Positions 52,003 through 60,880 of a DNA stretch of 64,000 bases are shown here, in pieces. Where the stretch lies: NCBI GenBank assembly GCA_030827475.1, contig JAUREJ010000002.1, positions 18,027 to 82,026 of the forward strand, written 5' to 3'. The notes beneath the pieces are model-generated. The model did no database searches. It saw only the letters and a list, made by a program, of their open reading frames with translations, and had not been told where the DNA came from. Numbering within the stretch: the stretch's first letter is position 1; every line of letters starts with the position of its first letter. The translations under genes and the position numbers were made by a program. The DNA comes from Poseidonia sp. GTDB lineage: Archaea; Thermoplasmatota; Poseidoniia; Poseidoniales; Poseidoniaceae.

Positions 52003-52614
52003 TCACTCCGCTTCAAAGGCGTCCACGACTTCGAGCATTTCGGCGTCCTCGCCGACCATATCTTCAGCGTCCCCGGTGCCCTCGTTTTTGGCTTCCAAAC
52101 CAACAAAGGGGTCGTTGCCGTCTTCGACCATGCAAAGCAATCGCCATCGGGGCGCCCAGGATAGGTGGACGTAGACCGGTCCAGGAAGCAAGAGCAGGGT
52201 CCAAACCAAGAGCGCCGGCATGCCGAGCAAACCGGTTCGGTCAACGGTCAGCAGTGCCAAGCCCAGGAAGGGCATCGGGTAGAGGAACGCACGCGGCGGG
52301 GTGACGGGGTGCCGCTTGGAAAAGGCGACAAGGACCAAGGAAATGAAGCCCAGGAAGGCACAAGCAACGAGCAGGAGCGAGGTGTGATAGAGCCACTGGA
52401 CGGCCCAGACTTCGTTGCCCTCCTCGCCAAATGCATAGGGGAGAAGAAGCGCCAACGCCACGAGCATACCGTAGAAGGCGCCGATGTTGGCAGGATGATT
52501 CAACCAAAGCGGAAGGCGTGCAAAACGCCTGGAGAGCGACGTGCCGAGCAAGGTTTCCTGCTCACTGGAAGCCAATTGCTCAACCTTTGACATCCAAGTT
52601 TCGTTGGTAGGCAC
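52003..52614 (-). CDS. Hypothetical membrane protein (about 4 TM)
   Basis: Hydrophobic helices with acidic tail; closely packed between neighbours. Confidence 0.65.
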   Translation of the reverse strand: MPTNETWMSKVEQLASSEQETLLGTSLSRRFARLPLWLNHPANIGAFYGMLVALALLLPYAFGEEGNEVWAVQWLYHTSLLLVACAFLGFISLVLVAFSKRHPVTPPRAFLYPMPFLGLALLTVDRTGLLGMPALLVWTLLLLPGPVYVHLSWAPRWRLLCMVEDGNDPFVGLEAKNEGTGDAEDMVGEDAEMLEVVDAFEAE

Positions 52615-52671
52615 GGACCCTCGTCGGGCGAACGGGTTTTCAAGGTAAGGGCTGAAATCAGGCGGAAACCT

Positions 52672-53352
52672 TCATTCTTTCTTCCTAAAAAACGACACCA
52701 GCGGGCTTTCAACCTCCACGCTCTCCTCTTCTTCCAACCAAGAACGCTCGAGCAAACCGGTGTCCATCGCTTCGCGTTCCCGGGCGGCCTCGATGGGGTC
52801 GGGGACATCGTTCACGGCGTCGCGCAGGGCGATGGCTTGGTTGATCAAGGTCAGGTGGCGGGTGAGGGTTGGCGTGCGCTCCTTGGCTTCGCTGAAGTGG
52901 CCGAGAACGGGGAAATCAAATGTGTCATGAGCGAGGTTGAACCCTCCAATCAGTTCGTCGGGGACAAGACGAACCCGGTGTGCACCGGGGTCTCGCCAGG
53001 TTCCGTCGGCAAAGCGAACGAGCAAGGCGGCCTCGCCAAGCGGCTCACCGTCCATGAACGGGTGATTCATGTTCACGGCAAGCGGCGTGGTCACATGTCC
53101 TCGGTAACGAAGCAGCACCACGGTCACGTTCATTCCGGCCACTGCGGCGGCGACGAGGCCGGCGATAGGGGCCGAGAACGCAAACAGGGAAAGCAGAGCA
53201 AAAAGCACGACGGCAAGCCCAGCACTCGCTCCGAGTCCCGCATTGCGCCCGTTGATGAACGGTTGAGCCACCGAGGTTTGGATGAACGGGAGCATGTCAG
53301 GTGGCAGCGCTGAAGATGCTCCACCCATGGTCCCGAGAGGGGAAGCGTCCAC
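52672..53352 (-). CDS. Hypothetical membrane protein (2 TM + soluble acidic C-domain)
   Basis: TM pair LAVVLFALLSLF / LVAAAVAGMNVTVV. Start moved to the GTG just after the DUF309 stop; uncertain. Confidence 0.6.
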   Translation of the reverse strand: MDASPLGTMGGASSALPPDMLPFIQTSVAQPFINGRNAGLGASAGLAVVLFALLSLFAFSAPIAGLVAAAVAGMNVTVVLLRYRGHVTTPLAVNMNHPFMDGEPLGEAALLVRFADGTWRDPGAHRVRLVPDELIGGFNLAHDTFDFPVLGHFSEAKERTPTLTRHLTLINQAIALRDAVNDVPDPIEAAREREAMDTGLLERSWLEEEESVEVESPLVSFFRKKE

Positions 53353-53353
53353 T

Positions 53354-53746
53354 TCAATCCCTCGTTCGAGGGAATTGGTGTTCGGCTGCGACGAGCTTCC
53401 AACTGCCGTTATCTTCTGCATAGTTGGCGATGGTCTCGAGATGAAGGGCGACATCAAGGCCCCATGCAGTGGACCAACCTTCAAGTTTGGAGTGGACCTT
53501 CGTCCACTGTTTCTCGACGCCTGCTTGGTTTCGTCGTTGGTGATGGAGTAACAAGGCTGCAGTTTGAATGAAGCCTTGGACGAGGAGAATCTCCTCGGGC
53601 GGAGCCTGCCGTTGCTTCAGTCGGTTCCACAACGCCTCCCAAGCCTCGTGTGCATGCCAAAATCGGCCTTCGTCAAACAGTGCCAAGCCGTCGTGCAGCT
53701 CCTTTTCTTCGTCACCGTCGAGCGGCCCGGCGCTGAACGGTTCCAT
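53354..53746 (-). CDS. DUF309 family protein
   Basis: G..LF..G.FW.AHE.WE..W and QG.IQ.A...H motifs. The ORF-track N-terminal extension is antisense to the next gene. Confidence 0.85.
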   Translation of the reverse strand: MEPFSAGPLDGDEEKELHDGLALFDEGRFWHAHEAWEALWNRLKQRQAPPEEILLVQGFIQTAALLLHHQRRNQAGVEKQWTKVHSKLEGWSTAWGLDVALHLETIANYAEDNGSWKLVAAEHQFPRTRD

Positions 53747-53823
53747 GGTGGTAAGAGAGCGATGAGGTTTGAAAGCCTTCGTCTTCAAGAAATCAGCATC
53801 GATATTCGCCTTTCCAAGCAGAG

Positions 53824-55893
53824 GTGGCGAGGTCGGCAGCGCCGAAGAGCATCCCAAACCAAGGACGAACGGAATCCGGACGCCGCACTCTTCAAGAGGG
53901 GGTTTGGCGAAGAGGGCGTGTAGGGTGCGGACGCGTGGTTGAGTTTGAGCACGGTGATTTGCTGGAGGAACGCCGAGGAGGCGTTGATGTCCTGCGGGTT
54001 TTGGTTCGGAACTTAGCGGTCCACGAACAATCGGGTGCTGTCGAAATCCGAGCATCTGCGGGTGAAGGAGGACGACAAGGGTGGCTCCTGTTTCGGCTTG
54101 GTCATCCCGTCATGGCGTTTCACAACGGTGACGTGGCCTCGGTGGGTCTCAATGCACTCATGGCCATCGAGGACGATGCTCTGAACGTTGACAACGATGT
54201 ACGGTTGTACGAACTCACCATGAACGCTCTGCGAACCACGATGTCCAACCACCCCGAAAGCGTCCTGCATCTCGAGCATCAACCCTCCGAAGGGGATGGG
54301 GATTCATGGTGGTCCTCGGTGCAACTACCAGCGGCCTCCTGGCGAAGAGCTGCCAGGTTGGAGGACATTGAAGAAATCGCACTCTCCTCAGAACATCGCC
54401 GTCGGTCGTCCACAGGCACGACGGACAAGCAGGCGCTTTCCCCCGGAGGCGTGTATCTCCTCGACACCCCAGACCCGCACCCGATGATTCACCTCGCCGT
54501 AGAACTGGCGGAACGAGGGATTCCGGTGTTGGGGTTGTTCGGGCTACCGCATGCATCCACAGAAGTGACCCAACGTTTGCCACGCCCCCAATGCTATGCA
54601 CTTCTCTCTCCACACGGGGGGTATGAGGTGGTGGAGGACCGAGCCTCCCTGCTCGCAACGGTGAACGGATTTCAATGGGGCAACGAACGCAGCGTCCTCG
54701 TCATCGATGGGTTGGATCGGCTTGGGAACGCCTTTGGTGACGATGTGATGCTCAACCTCTTCCGCTCTCTGTGCGACGGAGCACGCTTCAACGACCATGC
54801 CGTGTTGTGCTCAACCGACCTGGAGATGTTTGACACCTCGATTCGCCATGGCCTGCTCAGCGAGTCAACCGAACTCTCTCGTGGCGTTTTGGATGCTTGG
54901 CTTGACGAGCCCGATTTGCTTTGGGATGAACCCTTTTTGCTTGCTCCTGACGAGGAGGAAGAGCAGTGGTTGGCCGCTCAAATTCAACACCAAGGCGCAA
55001 AATTGGGAGCCGGTTCATCGTCGGTTGAGCCCGTCCTTGAAGGCGGGAGTTCTCACGTCGGTGACGAGGCTAGGGCCGAGGCCACCGCAGCCCTCAGCGA
55101 CGTCGTTGAGGGCTGGCAGAACCCCGGCCAACCTCCTGCCTCAGCACGACTTCTCAGCGATGAACTCCAGCCTCCAACGACCATTGGTGCCACGACATGG
55201 CGCCCCCAAACCGAAGCCTCATTCAACGAAGGTCGGTACATCACCGAATCACCTCGCTTCAAAGCAGGTGAGAAAGATGCGGTTCAACCGACCCGGCGCC
55301 GCTCCACACCATCATTAAAGGCACCCACTCCAGCAAGCATTCCCAAAATGCGGAAAGCGCAGCGGCTCCCAAGTCGGAAAAAAAATCCGGGTTTGCCTCA
55401 ACCTGAAGTCAGCGGCCATCAGCGACAGACCGCTGCGCTTGCGCACACGAGTGCATCGCTTCCCCCCTGGCCAGAAAAGCCCCGTCCAACCGATGCCTTC
55501 AGAAAAGAAAACATGGATGCCTTTACCCTTCGTCAAACCGAAGCGGTTGAACGGCAAGGTTCTCGTCATTTGGCGGGGCCTTCGCCCGAACTTCGTGATG
55601 TTGTGGCGGCGTCGCCGAATGTCGATTCGGGAGGTTTTCCCGGCCCCACTTCGTTCCAAACCGTGACCTTGCCGGCGAGCAACAACGGGCAACCGCTCTC
55701 AAGCAGTCTGATGCCCGTTCACCGTGACGAGGCAAAACCTGCACGGGAAACCGCAAGTTACGAGCAAAAAACGCTTGACATGGAGGAGGTTTACCGTGAA
55801 TGGACCACCTACGACGAGAAGGACATGGAGTCAAGTGCTCTTTACAACGAGAAGGGCGAGGCCCTCAAGCGCTACCAAGGTGATGCGTCTTGA
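53824..55893 (+). CDS. Multidomain hypothetical: N-terminal DUF2226/PATAN-like domain, central DUF835 (inactive RecA/KaiC-like) domain, long disordered C-terminus
   Basis: GWLLFRLGHPVMAF (PATAN/DUF4388-like). GVYLL...LVIDGLDRL..AFG.D..L.LFRSL.D......LCSTD matches the DUF835 pattern. Pro/Ser/Arg-rich tail. Confidence 0.6.
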   Translation: MARSAAPKSIPNQGRTESGRRTLQEGVWRRGRVGCGRVVEFEHGDLLEERRGGVDVLRVLVRNLAVHEQSGAVEIRASAGEGGRQGWLLFRLGHPVMAFHNGDVASVGLNALMAIEDDALNVDNDVRLYELTMNALRTTMSNHPESVLHLEHQPSEGDGDSWWSSVQLPAASWRRAARLEDIEEIALSSEHRRRSSTGTTDKQALSPGGVYLLDTPDPHPMIHLAVELAERGIPVLGLFGLPHASTEVTQRLPRPQCYALLSPHGGYEVVEDRASLLATVNGFQWGNERSVLVIDGLDRLGNAFGDDVMLNLFRSLCDGARFNDHAVLCSTDLEMFDTSIRHGLLSESTELSRGVLDAWLDEPDLLWDEPFLLAPDEEEEQWLAAQIQHQGAKLGAGSSSVEPVLEGGSSHVGDEARAEATAALSDVVEGWQNPGQPPASARLLSDELQPPTTIGATTWRPQTEASFNEGRYITESPRFKAGEKDAVQPTRRRSTPSLKAPTPASIPKMRKAQRLPSRKKNPGLPQPEVSGHQRQTAALAHTSASLPPWPEKPRPTDAFRKENMDAFTLRQTEAVERQGSRHLAGPSPELRDVVAASPNVDSGGFPGPTSFQTVTLPASNNGQPLSSSLMPVHRDEAKPARETASYEQKTLDMEEVYREWTTYDEKDMESSALYNEKGEALKRYQGDAS

Positions 55894-57977
55894 GCACGCC
55901 GACGAAACTGCGCTCGGTGCTCGACGACGCCAAGCGACACCTCGGTGATCATGGAGTTTCTCCTGCCCCTTCAGCGGGCGTATCGCCGCACCACAGCGAG
56001 GGAACGAACCATGAACCTGCTCGGTCGAAGTTGAACACCCTTCGTGGCGTCACATCGGTTGAACAGCGCCCTCTCTCGGTGTTTCAGCGCGTCGGGGTCC
56101 CTCAACGACCAACGTATGACCTCATCGCCGAACGTGTCCTCGGACCGAATGTCCCCCAACACCGGAATTTTCTCGAGGAGGGGTCAACCTATGCCGACCA
56201 CGTCGCTCAGCGTTTACGTCAATTGCAACAGCGACTCAATTCACAACCTGTTGACGAAAACGACCACGGGGTCCCATCCGCTTACATCGGGGTTGAAGAT
56301 GACGGGCGGCCCGTTTGGAGCCAAGTTTTGGAACAACAACGCGGTCGAGCATCGTACGCCCTGCATGGCCTCAGCGACACCGAGGATTCATCTCCATCGG
56401 CCCACGTCTCGGCCCTTAAGCGCGGTCCGATTCCCGATTTTCCTTCTCGCTTAGCGTGGTCCAACGAACGGACCTTCAAACGGTGGTTCGTCGCTGAAGA
56501 GAATTTCGATGCCACGCGCCTGTGCGAAGCGGTTGTGGATGCGCCCGGTCAACGATTCAACCCGCTTTTCCTTCAGGGCGATGCCTCGTCCGGAATCTCG
56601 CTCCTGCTCCATGCCACCGGTCAAGCACTGTTGCGTCGCAACGAAGGCCATGTTCTCGCTGTCTCGGCAGCCGACCTTCACGGTGTGGACCCGACGGGTG
56701 CACACTGGCAGGAAGCCTTGCCGGGAGCAACAGCGCTGATGGTTGATGACCTTCATCTGTTTGCAACCGAGGAACATTGGAAACATCAGATGGGCGTGCT
56801 GATTGACAGAGCATTGAATCTTGGAGTTCACGTGGTGGTGGGCTGTCGCTTACCCCTTGATGCCCTTCCTTCCTCCCGCTTGAAGGAGGTCTTGCTTCAA
56901 GCCACCGTTGCCTCCCTGTTGCCTCCTTCTGTTGGAACGATGATGGCGTACGCACGGTGGCGCTGTGCGCAAAAGAATCTGCTCCTTGCAGACCCTCATC
57001 TCGCCCAAATCGCAAGGGAGTACCCGGCCGGGTGGGCAGCTGTCGACGGTCGCCTCGAGCGGGTCGCCCTCGCTTTGGAAAACGGCGGTGTTCTGCTGGA
57101 GCAAGACGATTTGACAACCTTCCTCCAAGGAGGTCCATCAACGACCTCGAACGCTCTTGAAAGCAAGCGGATTGAAGACGTCGCCGCCTCTATGGTCGGT
57201 GAAGTGCTCGACAGCGTCTACTCAAGCGTTCAACCCGGCGGAATTGACCTGCGTGCGAACGTGGAGCCGTGGGAGGACGACGATTACCTTCCTCCTTCGT
57301 TTGATGAGGACCTCACTGCGGCGGCCCACACGGCGAGGTTTGAGCAAAATGTGCGCGAGACCATCGAACACATCACCCCCGGTCGACCATCGGTGCTGGA
57401 CGTTCACGAGCGAGAGAAGTATTTGATCTCCAACCGGGAACCCTTGAATTTCGAAGACGTCGAACGTGCGGTTGATGTGCTGATCGATCTCGATGAAGAG
57501 ATAGAGTCCCGTCTGGTGCGGACCGAGCAATCCGCCGCTGCGACATCCAACGAACTGAACCGTCTGGAAGACCAGATGGTGATGCTGGGACAACGGGCCT
57601 TGGAAGCGGACATCGATGAACTCATCACCATCGCAGATGAGTTGCGAAGCATCGAAGAACGTCTCGTTGAACTCGACCCTGAACGAGGACCTCTGCCGCC
57701 GTTTGAAGCCCTTGAACCGGCCAACGCCCGACGGAAGGTTGGCCGACGTCGCTCCCCCCTACGCAATCTTGACGCTGAGCTGGCCTCGGAAACGGAAGTT
57801 GGAACAGCATCCAACCCTGCCTCTTCGTTTGATTCCTACGAACCCGAAGGCGAATGGAACGTTGACGAGGTTGGTATTTCTGCGACCGACCTTCTCAACG
57901 AAGAGGATAAGCCTCGCTCCCCGGTACGTCTCTCCAGAATCACTCCACGAACCGTCTTGGTTGGTGAAGAGGAATGA
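55890..57977 (+). CDS. DnaA/Hda-like AAA+ domain protein with degenerate Walker A, acidic coiled-coil C-terminus, no DnaA domain IV
   Basis: TF..W.V...N, FNPLFLQGDASSGISLLLHA.G, LMVDDLH, then LLPP, following the bacterial DnaA domain III order. TTG start overlaps the upstream TGA; AAGGTGA SD. Confidence 0.75.
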   Translation: MSTPTKLRSVLDDAKRHLGDHGVSPAPSAGVSPHHSEGTNHEPARSKLNTLRGVTSVEQRPLSVFQRVGVPQRPTYDLIAERVLGPNVPQHRNFLEEGSTYADHVAQRLRQLQQRLNSQPVDENDHGVPSAYIGVEDDGRPVWSQVLEQQRGRASYALHGLSDTEDSSPSAHVSALKRGPIPDFPSRLAWSNERTFKRWFVAEENFDATRLCEAVVDAPGQRFNPLFLQGDASSGISLLLHATGQALLRRNEGHVLAVSAADLHGVDPTGAHWQEALPGATALMVDDLHLFATEEHWKHQMGVLIDRALNLGVHVVVGCRLPLDALPSSRLKEVLLQATVASLLPPSVGTMMAYARWRCAQKNLLLADPHLAQIAREYPAGWAAVDGRLERVALALENGGVLLEQDDLTTFLQGGPSTTSNALESKRIEDVAASMVGEVLDSVYSSVQPGGIDLRANVEPWEDDDYLPPSFDEDLTAAAHTARFEQNVRETIEHITPGRPSVLDVHEREKYLISNREPLNFEDVERAVDVLIDLDEEIESRLVRTEQSAAATSNELNRLEDQMVMLGQRALEADIDELITIADELRSIEERLVELDPERGPLPPFEALEPANARRKVGRRRSPLRNLDAELASETEVGTASNPASSFDSYEPEGEWNVDEVGISATDLLNEEDKPRSPVRLSRITPRTVLVGEEE

Positions 57978-58438
57978 GGGCACCGTGGTGGATGGAGGGC
58001 GTTGCTTTCCAATGCCAGCCAAATTGTGGACGATGCTGCGACCAACCAGGCGGTATCGTTTACCTCTCACCCGATGATGCTGAGCGACTCGCCGAGCATG
58101 CCGGCCTAGACGTTGGTTCGTGGTTGGAACGTGACACTCGGAAAACCTTTGACGGCCGTTACGTGCTCAAAAGTCGCGAGGAGGATGGGGTTTGCATTCA
58201 TTTGAACGAACACAAGCAATGCTCAATCTACGACGTTCGACCCCAACAATGCAAGGCCTTCCCGTGGTGGGGGGAGAACCTCGTAACACCCGCGGCATGG
58301 GACAAAACCAAGGCCGCATGTCCGGGGATCGATGCTGAAAACGCCATCGTGGTGGACGGGCAAACCATCCGTCTCCATGTGTTCGCCGACCGAACCTCAA
58401 CCAAAGGCTTCAGAACGTGGCCGGTTGAAAAAAGATGA
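57974..58438 (+). CDS. YkgJ-family (CxxCxxCC) cysteine-cluster protein
   Basis: CQPNCGRCC, CIHL, CSIY..RP.QC..FPWW, CPG; ATGA overlap with the upstream gene. Confidence 0.9.
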   Translation: MRAPWWMEGVAFQCQPNCGRCCDQPGGIVYLSPDDAERLAEHAGLDVGSWLERDTRKTFDGRYVLKSREEDGVCIHLNEHKQCSIYDVRPQQCKAFPWWGENLVTPAAWDKTKAACPGIDAENAIVVDGQTIRLHVFADRTSTKGFRTWPVEKR

Positions 58439-58508
58439 TTCAACCGATAGCCTGCGGCGGTGTTGTTAGGCACACCGTTTGAACCGGGCGATTTTTGCAT
58501 GAGCCGCC

Positions 58509-58550: not shown

Positions 58551-59717
58551 ATGACTGGAGATGAACCGATGTTCACCGTCAACCGCTCCCATCTCAACAC
58601 TGGACTTCGGGGGATTCCCGTCGGCACCTGCCGCACATCGTTTGTGACGCCCACCGAGGGTGTTCACTACTGCGGGTACCCCATCGCGGAACTCGCCCAT
58701 TTCTCCCCGGAAGACATCGTCTACCTGCTGTTCAACAAGGAACTCCCAACCCCTGCGCAAGCTGAGGCCTTTCGTACCGATTTGGGGTCTCGGGGCGCCG
58801 TTCCAAACAGCGTCGCCGCCGTCTTCCACACCCTTCCTCGAGACGGTCACCCCATGGACTGGCTGAGCATCGGCATTCACACCCTCGGAATGCTGGACAC
58901 CACGGGGGATTGGCGGGAGGACGCTCTCAACCTCATCGCTCGTATGCCTCGGATGATGGCGCTTCTCTTCCGCATTCGTGAAGGTCGGGGCGAGAACATC
59001 CCAGAAGACGATCTTTCGGCTTCTATGGTTCAGCGGTTCGTACACACCCTCGACCTTGACGGGGTCGACCGAGACTTGATGGAACGCATTCTTGCCACTT
59101 ATCTCGTCCTTCACATGGACCACGGCGGCGGAAACCTCTCCACCTTTACTGGGAAAGCCGTCGCTTCCGGCCACGCCACGGTTTACGCCTCCATCGCAGG
59201 AGCGATGAACGCTCTTTCCGGCCCACTTCACGGACGAGCGAACCAATCTTGCCTTGAGTTTGTCCTCCGCATCGGAACGAGCGATCCCGACGAAGTGGAA
59301 GCCTTCGTTCGCGGTGAACTCGCTGCGAAACGCCCGGTGTTTGGTTTCGGCCATGCTGTTCTTCGAGCGGAGGACCCGAGGGCAACCGTTCAATTTGCCC
59401 TTGGGGAGGAACTTTGCCCGGACGATGAGAATTTCAAAATCATTCGCACGCTTCGCGAAGTCGCGCCGCGGGTGCTGTCCGAGAATCCAAAAATCTCGAA
59501 TCCAAACGCCAACGTTGACATCGCAAGCGGGGCGCTGCTCCACCACATCGGTTTCACCGACCCCACCTACTACACGACCTTCTTTGGTTGGGCTCGCGTC
59601 GCCGGCATCGGTGCACAAATCCTTGACGAACGCACCGTCATGCGAGGTGGAAAAGGTACGCCCATTTACCGGCCAAAATACATCGCCGAAGAACAGTCTC
59701 TGCGTCACCTTGAGTGA
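58551..59717 (+). CDS. gltA: Citrate synthase (or 2-methylcitrate synthase)
   Basis: GLRG, LHMDHGGGN.STF, ALSGPLHGRANQ, GFGHAVLR.EDPR, NVD, R..G. Confidence 0.9.
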   Translation: MTGDEPMFTVNRSHLNTGLRGIPVGTCRTSFVTPTEGVHYCGYPIAELAHFSPEDIVYLLFNKELPTPAQAEAFRTDLGSRGAVPNSVAAVFHTLPRDGHPMDWLSIGIHTLGMLDTTGDWREDALNLIARMPRMMALLFRIREGRGENIPEDDLSASMVQRFVHTLDLDGVDRDLMERILATYLVLHMDHGGGNLSTFTGKAVASGHATVYASIAGAMNALSGPLHGRANQSCLEFVLRIGTSDPDEVEAFVRGELAAKRPVFGFGHAVLRAEDPRATVQFALGEELCPDDENFKIIRTLREVAPRVLSENPKISNPNANVDIASGALLHHIGFTDPTYYTTFFGWARVAGIGAQILDERTVMRGGKGTPIYRPKYIAEEQSLRHLE

Positions 59718-60880
59718 GGGTGCAGGACCGGCCGTGATGTCTTGCCGCTTCCACGGTGACCGATGAGTCGGGGTGCAGACCACGGCGGTGTTGTTCCGTT
59801 GGCGGAAGCCAAAACCGATTCAAGGCTGCCCGACCATGACCAAGCCGACCTCCATTCTTCCACAAGTTGCCTTCGGCGCGCCACGTCGGCCTCGGCCCAC
59901 GTCGGGGTCTCGTTTTGCAGCTCTGCAAGAATGGTTTGATGGTCGTCATGTTCGGCCGATGCAAGCCGGTTCCATTGCTCATCGTCCAGGGGACGTGTTC
60001 CCGGTTGGTTCCATCTCGGATGTCCTGAGGGAAGCCATGTCAACGTTGGATCTGCATGGTCCGTCAATCCCGTCAATCCCGCTCGAAGCAGGTCGTGTTC
60101 AATCTGAGGTCGTGTCGGCCAAACATAGGTCGCCATGCCGTTGCGGTGACGGTCCAAACGTTGCCTTCCACCATCCCGGAGGCCAACCGCCCGTCCGAGC
60201 GATAGATGGCGGGTCCGTGAATGGAAATATTCCACGGCACACGGGAGCATTGAACTCCCCTGTTGTTCATGACGTCGAACGAGTCGCCGAAACGGCGTGG
60301 TCAGGTATTGCGGGAAGGCTTGCAACCGCTGTGTCGTGCGATTCCCGTAGGGCGGGATGTACGGTATCAACGCCGCCCACGGGCGTGAGGTTCCGGCCAG
60401 TGCAGCGGATTCGGGCATGCCTTTGTGAAAAGCATAGAACACCGTGTTTTCAACGGGTATGGCCCGTTGTTCCAACGCGTCTTCAGCGAGTCGCATGGCC
60501 AGAGCGATGTGTTCGTTGTGGCGTTGACGGCCAAAATAGCCTCCTCCTGGGGTGGCTTTGGGATGGGGTCGCTTGATTTCGATGCACCCCATCTTCCCCT
60601 TTTCCACCCATTGGCGTTGAACTTCAGCATCGTCAAGCAGGTCGTCGAAGGCAAGGAAGCCGAGGCCAACGAGGTCATCCAACGTCCATTCCTCCACCCA
60701 AGGCGATTTGTCGCTCAAATGAACCTTGGGAACCGAAACATCTCGATCGTGGTGGACGACGAGTTGGCGGTCCGCCGTCACCCGGATGTCAAACTCGATG
60801 CCGTCGAAGTGGACGATTCCATGCCGGAGGCTATTAAGCGTGTTTTCGGGGGCCTGGACCCACGCTTCAACCTCCTCCAT
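59705..60880 (-). CDS. Glycerophosphodiester phosphodiesterase (GDPD), circularly permuted
   Basis: N-terminus APENTL...DGIEFD.R.T.D..LVVHHD, IEIK, G..TD; the beta1 motif LIGHRG lies at the extreme C-terminus. Confidence 0.85.
   Translation of the reverse strand: MEEVEAWVQAPENTLNSLRHGIVHFDGIEFDIRVTADRQLVVHHDRDVSVPKVHLSDKSPWVEEWTLDDLVGLGFLAFDDLLDDAEVQRQWVEKGKMGCIEIKRPHPKATPGGGYFGRQRHNEHIALAMRLAEDALEQRAIPVENTVFYAFHKGMPESAALAGTSRPWAALIPYIPPYGNRTTQRLQAFPQYLTTPFRRLVRRHEQQGSSMLPCAVEYFHSRTRHLSLGRAVGLRDGGRQRLDRHRNGMATYVWPTRPQIEHDLLRAGLTGLTDHADPTLTWLPSGHPRWNQPGTRPLDDEQWNRLASAEHDDHQTILAELQNETPTWAEADVARRRQLVEEWRSAWSWSGSLESVLASANGTTPPWSAPRLIGHRGSGKTSRPVLHPHSR

Follow-up and report, generated by a model that had tools for sequence, protein, structure and literature searches.

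Here, we propose that two adjacent genes of the archaeon Poseidonia sp. encode the two halves of one machine, built around a degenerate AAA+ core of the bacterial DnaA type. The genes, g1 and g2, lie with a third, g3, in a 64,000-nucleotide stretch of GenBank assembly GCA_030827475.1 (contig JAUREJ010000002.1, positions 18,027 to 82,026 of the forward strand), called the window below; all coordinates are window positions. We consider it probable that the products of g1 and g2 act together as a nucleotide-independent scaffold or adaptor, and not as an ATPase or a replication initiator, with g3 as an accessory. This is based on gene order, gene overlaps, domain identities, gene fusions in related archaea, motif states, purifying selection and co-loss, from which we infer a physical complex of g1 and g2, its scaffold role and the role of g3. 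Each of the three genes is present in a single copy, g2 being the sole Bac_DnaA match, in a draft genome that is 87% complete and 1.82 Mb long and to which gene-copy counts refer. Named homologs of the proteins belong to Poseidonia sp. or Candidatus Poseidoniales archaeon, which points to a Marine Group II archaeon, probably of the Poseidoniaceae.

The open reading frame (ORF) listing of the window contains three same-strand ORFs, at 53824-55893 (+), 55890-57977 (+) and 57974-58438 (+). A previous sequence-only reading of this DNA had noted that the genes overlap by TTGA (55890-55893) and ATGA (57974-57977), and the sequence indeed reads cTTGAg and aATGAg at these positions. At the g1/g2 junction (55879..55893, +), a Shine-Dalgarno (SD)-like GGTGAT (55879-55884) is followed by TTGA, in which the TTG start of g2 overlaps the TGA stop of g1. 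At the g2/g3 junction (57963..57977, +), GGTGAAGAGGA is followed by ATGA, with SD-like GGTGA/GAGGA at 57963-57973, 5' of the g3 start. Counting the start of g1, all three starts have an SD-like motif 5' of them, complementary to the archaeal 16S 3' end. Judged by strand, overlaps, internal SD motifs and conservation in relatives, g1-g2-g3 is a predicted translationally coupled operon. The ratios of nonsynonymous to synonymous substitution rates (dN/dS) are 0.13 for g1, calculated against an 86%-identical ortholog, 0.14 for g2 and 0.05 for g3, values that indicate purifying selection on all three genes.

The second gene, g2 (55890..57977, +), encodes a protein of 695 aa consisting of an N-region, a degenerate DnaA domain III AAA+ core, a coiled coil and an acidic tail. 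Its match to Bac_DnaA (PF00308) scores 30.5 bits, above the cut-off of 23. Residues 187-395 also give weak DnaA and Hda NCBIfam matches, the Hda model TIGR03420 scoring 33 bits where the cut-off is 195. In a phmmer search, residues 161-393 align to domain III of Bacillus subtilis DnaA (8btg) with an E-value of 1.5e-9. The AAA+ base and lid (residues ~191-400; 56460..57089, +) take the DnaA domain III fold in the predicted model, with a predicted local distance difference test (pLDDT) score of 80-92 over residues 200-400, and Foldseek matches this model to 8bv3 (E 5.9e-12, template-modelling (TM) score 0.77) and 2z4r (TM 0.81), with Hda next (3BOS, 5X06). Annotation pipelines name g2 a "DnaA/Hda family protein". 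There is no Pfam or NCBIfam match in g2 outside residues 187-395, and neither domain I/DnaA_N nor domain IV was found. Beyond the lid, the AlphaFold2 (AF2) model continues with helices and a long coiled coil and ends in a tail that is disordered and, like the coiled coil, acidic; the acidic helix/coiled coil covers residues 521-595 (57450..57674, +), with helices at 521-572 and 575-595 (pLDDT 78-88) and a net charge of -16.

The catalytic site of this core is degenerate. The Walker A motif (56577..56600, +) reads GDASSGIS against the canonical GxxGxGKT, and alignments place an isoleucine at the position of the lysine. The Walker B Asp-Asp pair is kept (56745..56750, +; D286 and D287, invariant in g2 alignment A2). 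Three further residues of bacterial DnaA are lost, namely the aspartate of sensor I, the second arginine of box VII and the arginine of sensor II, the window g2 reading RLKEVLLQA as against the RLxSRF of box VII, and GWAAVDG at sensor II. The initiator-specific motif, a two-helix insert between strand 2 and Walker B, is shortened. Sequence, fold and motifs thus agree with the previous description of g2 as a DnaA-like, apparently inactive pseudo-ATPase.

How far this decay extends differs from motif to motif. The second box VII arginine is absent in 15 of 15 Poseidoniales g2 sequences examined, in which Walker B is kept. The Walker A lysine is intact, as GKS or GKT, in family f3 (L013, L015, L040, L041), in family f2 (L014) and in two genera of family f1 (L038, L039); the window genus, the L020/L021 branch and L037 have Cys, Ile, Thr or Gly in its place. 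Since g2 orthologs in other Poseidoniales families keep this lysine, ATP binding appears to have been lost late. On these alignments, the pseudo-ATPase state belongs to the window genus and a few others and does not extend to the family as a whole; it probably has more than one origin.

The first gene, g1 (53935..55893, +), encodes 652 aa from GTG 53935, made up of a PATAN-like domain, a DUF835 domain and a disordered tail. The window protein has no Pfam or NCBIfam match and no match in a Protein Data Bank (PDB) sequence search; its AF2 model has two ordered domains. The N-terminal domain (residues 1-112; 53935..54270, +), of the PATAN/DUF4388 superfamily, has a predicted alpha-beta4-alpha-beta-alpha arrangement (fold residues ~14-110; pLDDT 68-81). 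The Pfam DUF4388 model (PF14332) gave no match even at E<=10 on five N-domains, and no significant match in 151 Thermoplasmatota genomes. A profile of the N-domain (A3), searched against 1.84 billion representative sequences, retrieved 545 relatives in which the domain is almost always N-terminal; among 100 A3-retrieved proteins, 44 carry DUF835, 25 Bac_DnaA, 12 DUF4388 and 7 DUF2226. In tandem-domain A3 relatives, Pfam recognises the copies as DUF4388 above cut-off, and hhalign aligns A3 with a profile of Pfam-DUF4388 regions (A6) at 98% probability (E 1.9e-13, 75 columns). By this transitive evidence, we assign the g1 N-domain to the PATAN superfamily, as the sequence-only reading had supposed, although the DUF4388 hidden Markov model (HMM) itself does not match it. 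Some relatives, of ~330-360 aa (P0248, P0270, P0280, P0283, P0311), have two tandem PATAN-like domains and a conserved C-terminal region, FLDPFAxEFEY; they start MxLPKG, as does the g1 N-domain, and related three-copy forms match DUF2226.

The second ordered region of g1 (residues ~166-335; 54430..54939, +) is a DUF835, or inactive KaiC-like, domain without a P-loop after strand 1, where inspection of the sequence finds no GxxxxGK[ST]. The DUF835 model (PF05763) does not match the window protein at E<=1; it matches 10 of 24 close homologs (best 2.1e-5) and gives 33.5-62.8 bits, against a cut-off of 33.1, in f2 and f3 orthologs of g1. Foldseek matches the region to RecA, KaiC CI and PH0284 at E-values of 1.6e-4 to 2e-3, and its dN/dS is 0.03. 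The orthologs and the RecA/KaiC-like fold therefore bear out the earlier assignment of DUF835 in g1 as an apparently inactive P-loop domain. After DUF835, ~300 residues are disordered, with a short acidic stretch and then the tail (residues 401-652; 55135..55890, +), which is basic (isoelectric point (pI) 9.1), Pro/Ser-rich and disordered (pLDDT mostly <50), with a dN/dS of 0.21 and the short conserved motifs PQRLPxRK, LPxWP, FRKENMD and ALYNEKGE. The long disordered linkers had been described as acidic; this is right for the C-terminal half of g2 (net charge -38) but wrong for g1 residues 401-652.

A link between g1 and g2 comes from other Thermoplasmatota, where the same modules are found on one polypeptide or in adjacent genes. 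The g2 profile and PF00308 find 1-10 matching proteins per genome in many other families of the phylum. These non-Poseidoniales DnaA-core proteins match Pfam with E-values of 1e-57 to 1e-75, have a core 60-66% identical to that of Bacillota DnaA, and are without domain IV; in the motif table the ATP site is intact in all 28 non-Poseidoniales archaeal sequences, as against the degenerate site of the window g2. Three loci (L030, L045, L063) have a PATAN-like domain, DnaA domain III and DUF835 on one chain, with Bac_DnaA at 7.9e-57 and DUF835 at 2.3e-25 in L030. DnaA domain III is fused to DUF835 in L029, L058, L060 (two copies) and L064; a PATAN-like domain, coiled coil, DnaA domain III and zinc ribbons are combined in L026, L046, L047, L049 and L050; and a DnaA domain III gene is followed by a separate DUF835 gene in L052, L055, L057 and L061. 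Because the modules of g1 and g2 are fused elsewhere in the phylum, g1 and g2 can be expected to act together (a Rosetta-stone argument). Pipelines label these fused relatives (for example L030, L045 and L063) "chromosomal replication initiator protein DnaA".

Several of the related loci have features of their own. An 821-aa DnaA-core protein (L051:6942-11153) has a DUF7289 protein on one side and T2SSF, a platform protein of pili or archaella, on the other; the upstream neighbour in L045 is MreB/actin-like, and the downstream neighbour in L030 is a Ras-family GTPase. In L052, the DUF835 protein beside the DnaA-core gene (L052:6361-7182, -) begins with a SAP domain (PF02037, E 1.3e-10), which is a putative motif for binding DNA. 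Six loci (L027, L028, L032, L052, L055, L059) encode short DnaA-core proteins (~430-500 aa) with the N-terminus MG(L/F)(L/I)D(W/R/F)(F/L)K, after which come a stretch rich in Lys/Arg and a coiled coil; the N-terminus resembles an amphipathic membrane-targeting helix. L049 (3824-10893, -) holds tandem paralogs, a PATAN-like/coiled-coil/zinc-ribbon protein without AAA+ beside a PATAN-like/coiled-coil/DnaA III/zinc-ribbon protein. A locus search with the fused-protein alignment returned mostly true bacterial DnaA genes, which served as outgroups in the AAA+ tree. In that tree the DnaA core of L075 (CAZVNH010000270.1, "uncultured Thermoplasmatales archaeon"), on a 4-kb contig, nests inside Bacillota DnaA, and the contig is probably a bacterial contaminant of an archaeal bin.

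Could g2 instead act on DNA? An alternative that we judge unlikely, while giving it more weight than the other rivals below, is that g2 is a DnaA/Hda-like regulator of replication or of another DNA transaction, binding single-stranded or distorted DNA or Orc1/Cdc6-MCM, with g1 as its signal input. The true homology of g2 to DnaA domain III, its pipeline name, the basic pI of the long g1 tail and the SAP motif on the adjacent DUF835 protein in one related lineage (L052) would all be consistent with such a role. It is difficult to reconcile, however, with a protein that has no domain IV and no DnaA_N match, whose initiator-specific insert is shortened, and which in the window has lost the Walker A lysine and the box VII and sensor II arginines. 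Furthermore, two Orc1/Cdc6 genes are present on other contigs of the genome, and several Poseidoniales genera do without the module altogether.

Within the order, the three genes are conserved together. We sampled 34 loci from three families (f1, f2, f3), obtained from searches of relatives and of the phylum. The gene order g1-g2-g3 holds in all 34, with g1 immediately 5' of g2 in the 32 of 32 loci that extend far enough and g3 immediately 3' of g2 in 34 of 34. At the g1/g2 junction, a 4-nt NTGA overlap is present in nearly all f1, f2 and f3 loci, usually with GGTGA/GGAGG 6-12 nt upstream. In the 26 loci where g3 is co-directional with g2, among them that of an f3 species (L041), the ATGA overlap is found in 25, L039 being the one that differs, and here too GGTGA or GGAGG usually lies 6-12 nt before it. 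Since NTGA recurs in three families and ATGA in nearly all loci with co-directional g3, we take it that neither junction is due to chance. At L013, where g3 is inverted, g2 still ends with the relic GAAGAGGAATGA, and for this reason the coupled three-gene order looks ancestral and the g3 inversions secondary.

The genes are also lost together. Streamlined f3 genera (1.3-1.6 Mb) are without g2, g3 and any DUF835, and their syntenic locus is either kbl-up203-DUF309-CitSyn or kbl-CitSyn, a clean block deletion. In a sister family (f4), the three genomes tested are without g2, and without g3 save for one weak match. The sequence-only reading held that the genes act as a unit, and staked this on their being co-conserved in related genomes; the constant order and the joint loss in streamlined Poseidoniales are in accord with it.

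The third gene, g3 (57974..58438, +), encodes a 154-aa YkgJ/CxxCxxCC protein that matches PF03692 with 44.3 bits against a cut-off of 23. Its eight conserved cysteines (C14, C18, C21, C22, C74, C83, C93, C116) are invariant in the full-length sequences among 33 orthologs. The family match and the cysteines uphold the previous identification of g3 as a YkgJ Cys-cluster protein and putative Fe-S or Zn protein, the metal itself being putative. A grouping of g3 with citrate synthase was considered and dismissed: g3 stays by g2 in either orientation and vanishes with g1 and g2, while citrate synthase remains.

A number of observations weigh against the view of g1-g3 as one functional unit, or against its proposed history. 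In 8 of the 34 loci (L013-L019 and L040), g3 is inverted and convergent with g2, and around the ~27 DnaA-core loci of other Thermoplasmatota the g3 HMM detects no relative. From the latter, the association of g3 appears to be Poseidoniales-specific, and from the two together we class g3 as an accessory of this lineage, outside the core of the system. Across the order, the genes from kbl to GDPD are collinear throughout; adjacency and co-loss are therefore only moderate evidence by themselves, and the co-loss of g1-g3 could be one contiguous deletion. In the AAA+ tree, the Poseidoniales g2 proteins form one clade on a branch of ~4 substitutions/site, so long that the tree does not place the clade relative to the fused archaeal proteins or to bacterial DnaA; descent of g2 from the fused family is therefore argued from shared partner domains and not from the tree. 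Lastly, the neighbours of the fused relatives are heterogeneous and point to no single process (Ras-like GTPase, MreB-like, KaiC/RadA-like ATPases, GNAT, T2SSF), and clustering the neighbours of ~27 related loci gave no widely recurrent partner apart from DUF835.

The same observations bear on a second rival, in which g3 is the functional centre, with g1 and g2 as an assembly or chaperone platform for it, or with g3 modifying them post-translationally. As the most constrained of the three genes (dN/dS 0.05), with eight invariant cysteines, g3 invites this idea, all the more as it always adjoins g2, is lost along with g1 and g2, and retains the ATGA coupling in nearly all co-directional loci; PF03692 also includes what we take to be a lysine methylase, FliB. 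A centre that can be inverted in eight loci and is missing near the ~27 related DnaA-core loci is, in our opinion, a poor candidate, and we regard this explanation as less likely than a DNA role for g2.

A third possibility is that the three genes are functionally unrelated and packed together by genome compaction, their overlaps being economy only. Four-nucleotide overlaps are common in compact prokaryotic genomes, the kbl-to-GDPD region is collinear across the order and g3 can be inverted without being lost, all of which this explanation would accommodate. What it does not predict is that the modules of g1 and g2 lie on one polypeptide in distant lineages, that overlaps and SD motifs are retained in three families, and that the presence or absence of the three genes agrees in ~45 genomes (with the weak g3 match in one f4 genome); we therefore hold it to be improbable. 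To see in g2 the remnant of a DnaA gene that was once acquired and is now decaying towards loss, with g1 and g3 alone functional, would fit the stepwise decay of its catalytic motifs, its very long branch and the loss of the module in streamlined genera, but this already disfavoured idea is hardly credible for an ORF that is intact (~580-740 aa, no internal stops) in more than 40 genomes, has a dN/dS of 0.115 in the AAA+ core and 0.14 over the whole of g2, and has many invariant residues outside the catalytic sites.

Returning to the scaffold or adaptor that we favour, how might it work? In Poseidoniales, the AAA+ core is encoded by a gene of its own, g2, predicted to be translationally coupled to the PATAN-DUF835 gene g1. 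The g2 protein would self-associate through its DnaA-type core and long coiled coil, and g1 would dock on it via DUF835, as the modules may do within one chain of the fused relatives. This would leave the PATAN domain of g1 exposed as an output surface for another partner, and the basic g1 tail and acidic g2 tail could perhaps make extra contacts. In the ancestor, ATP on the DnaA core may have gated assembly; with the arginine finger lost in all Poseidoniales and the Walker A lysine lost also in the window genus, the window g2 would function independently of nucleotide. The g3 protein, a Cys-rich Fe-S or Zn protein made in step with g1 and g2, could perhaps supply an input from redox state or metal, or act as a modifier. 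The sequence-only reading had spoken of a signalling or cell-cycle scaffold and not metabolism; this is kept here as a suggestion, to which the three-module fusions in other Thermoplasmatota now lend weight. A bolder version, which we put forward as a speculation with rather poor odds, is that Marine Group II archaea retain a domesticated, nucleotide-independent form of the filament-forming core of bacterial DnaA, which builds a structural assembly with its PATAN/inactive-KaiC partner and an Fe-S protein. Gated by redox state or by a signal, this assembly would organise the chromosome, the site of division, or an apparatus at the surface or of the pilus type. If true, archaea would possess a new class of machinery for cell organisation, with a replication initiator as its ancestor.

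In addition to the features above, the boundaries of the operon deserve comment. The longest g1 ORF begins at 53824 and would give 689 aa, as opposed to 652 aa from GTG 53935. Some 75 g1 homologs are ~650 aa long with the N-terminus MV(E/D)(I/L)xHGDL, and because orthologs begin in this way, GTG 53935 is most likely the true start. The long ORF was dismissed, since the equivalent of 53935 is where orthologs start, as does the gene called on a contig of 86% identity. An SD-like GGGTG (53923..53927, +), read from the sequence, lies 7 nt 5' of this probable start. With g1 starting at 53935, an apparent overlap with a divergent DUF309 gene disappears. This gene (ORF 53354-54055, -), transcribed divergently from g1 and adjoining it in most of the order Poseidoniales, is 233 aa by the longest-ORF rule and 130 aa in the gene call on the close contig; its start is most likely at 53746, giving a 188-nt intergenic region before g1. 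At the other end, a T5 tract (58492..58496, +) 54 nt 3' of the g3 stop is a possible archaeal terminator, weak evidence because another T5 tract sits within g1 at 54934.

The junctions themselves may constrain the proteins. The GGTGAAGAGGA at the end of g2 encodes its conserved C-terminal GEEE (G692 and E694 invariant) and doubles as the SD for g3, so GEEE may be conserved for the sake of ribosome binding and not for what it does in the protein. Likewise, the conservation of K-G-D near the end of g1 (AAGGTGAT) may be due to a ribosome-binding site.

Further out, the interval from kbl to DUF309 holds two conserved genes without a Pfam match (52003-53484, -), which encode apparent membrane proteins of 203 aa and 270 aa; the gene for the larger one is absent along with g1-g3 in one streamlined genus (g7). 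A GDPD-family protein of 391 aa is encoded at 59705-60880 (-), the Pfam model matching only its residues 10-74 (model positions 8-69 of 244).

Our literature searches, on DUF835, on DnaA in Poseidoniales, Thermoplasmatota and Marine Group II, and on DnaA-like proteins in Thermoplasmata, turned up no publication on this DnaA-core family. New here are the Poseidoniales form split over two coupled genes, the stepwise decay of the ATP site across Poseidoniales, the placing of the g1 N-domain in the PATAN superfamily and the coupled YkgJ gene within the cluster. Poseidoniales are uncultured and among the most abundant surface-ocean archaea. As the operon is single-copy, under purifying selection, kept in larger-genome Poseidoniales lineages and dropped from streamlined ones, it marks a real, optional cellular function. 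It also documents an archaeal change of a bacterial initiator ATPase core, from full motifs (fused relatives) to no arginine finger (Poseidoniales g2) and to no Walker A lysine (window genus). In practical terms, the labels "DnaA/Hda family" and "chromosomal replication initiator DnaA" are misleading in archaeal genomes and in origin prediction.

How does the operon compare with known systems? With domain III of bacterial DnaA (8BV3/8BTG, 2Z4R, 2HCB/3R8F; PF00308), g2 shares the AAA+ base and lid fold (TM 0.77-0.81) and a set of sequence blocks: TF..(F/W).V...N, NPLF, L.HA.G, h-h-DD and the ..PP block. It differs in having neither domain IV (the DnaA-box helix-turn-helix) nor domain I, in its Walker A sequence GDASSGIS, in the missing arginine finger and sensor II arginine, and in its shortened insert; moreover, its core is trailed by an acidic coiled coil and tail, and its host is an archaeon with Orc1/Cdc6. 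Hda, the second-best fold match (3BOS, 5X06), is like g2 a DnaA-family AAA+ core without a DNA-binding domain, but it has ~230 aa and an N-terminal clamp-binding motif, binds ADP and acts via the beta-clamp on DnaA-ATP, whereas g2 has 695 aa and other flanks. To our knowledge, archaea have neither a beta-clamp nor DnaA.

For g1, the closest parallels are signalling proteins. Its N-domain belongs, by profile-profile comparison, to the same superfamily as the PatA-type PATAN domains of cyanobacterial PixE, PixG and PatA, but g1 is without their receiver (REC) domain. In Synechocystis, output runs through PATAN, which binds PilB1 and PilC, the motor proteins of the pilus (PMC11181946). Galperin et al. 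2018 (PMC5847659) place DUF835, as an inactivated KaiC ("iKaiC"), among the output domains of response regulators in archaea. With the REC-DUF835 regulators g1 has in common the DUF835 domain, which in them is a signalling output without a P-loop; unlike them, it has no receiver, and its DUF835 is paired with PATAN and a DnaA-type core. As for g3, it has the full cysteine pattern of YkgJ/UPF0153 (PF03692), a family for which we know of no established function, and a translational coupling of such a gene to one with a DnaA core is peculiar to Poseidoniales.

The PATAN-like/DnaA III/DUF835 fusion of other Thermoplasmatota (L030, L045, L063) contains the same three modules as g1 and g2 together, with the PATAN-like domain N-terminal, long coiled coils and acidic tails. 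There, the modules lie on one chain, or a DnaA III gene precedes a DUF835 gene, and every ATPase motif is intact. In the window, by contrast, the core is split off, highly diverged and predicted to be catalytically dead, PATAN is joined directly to DUF835, and a YkgJ gene is appended.

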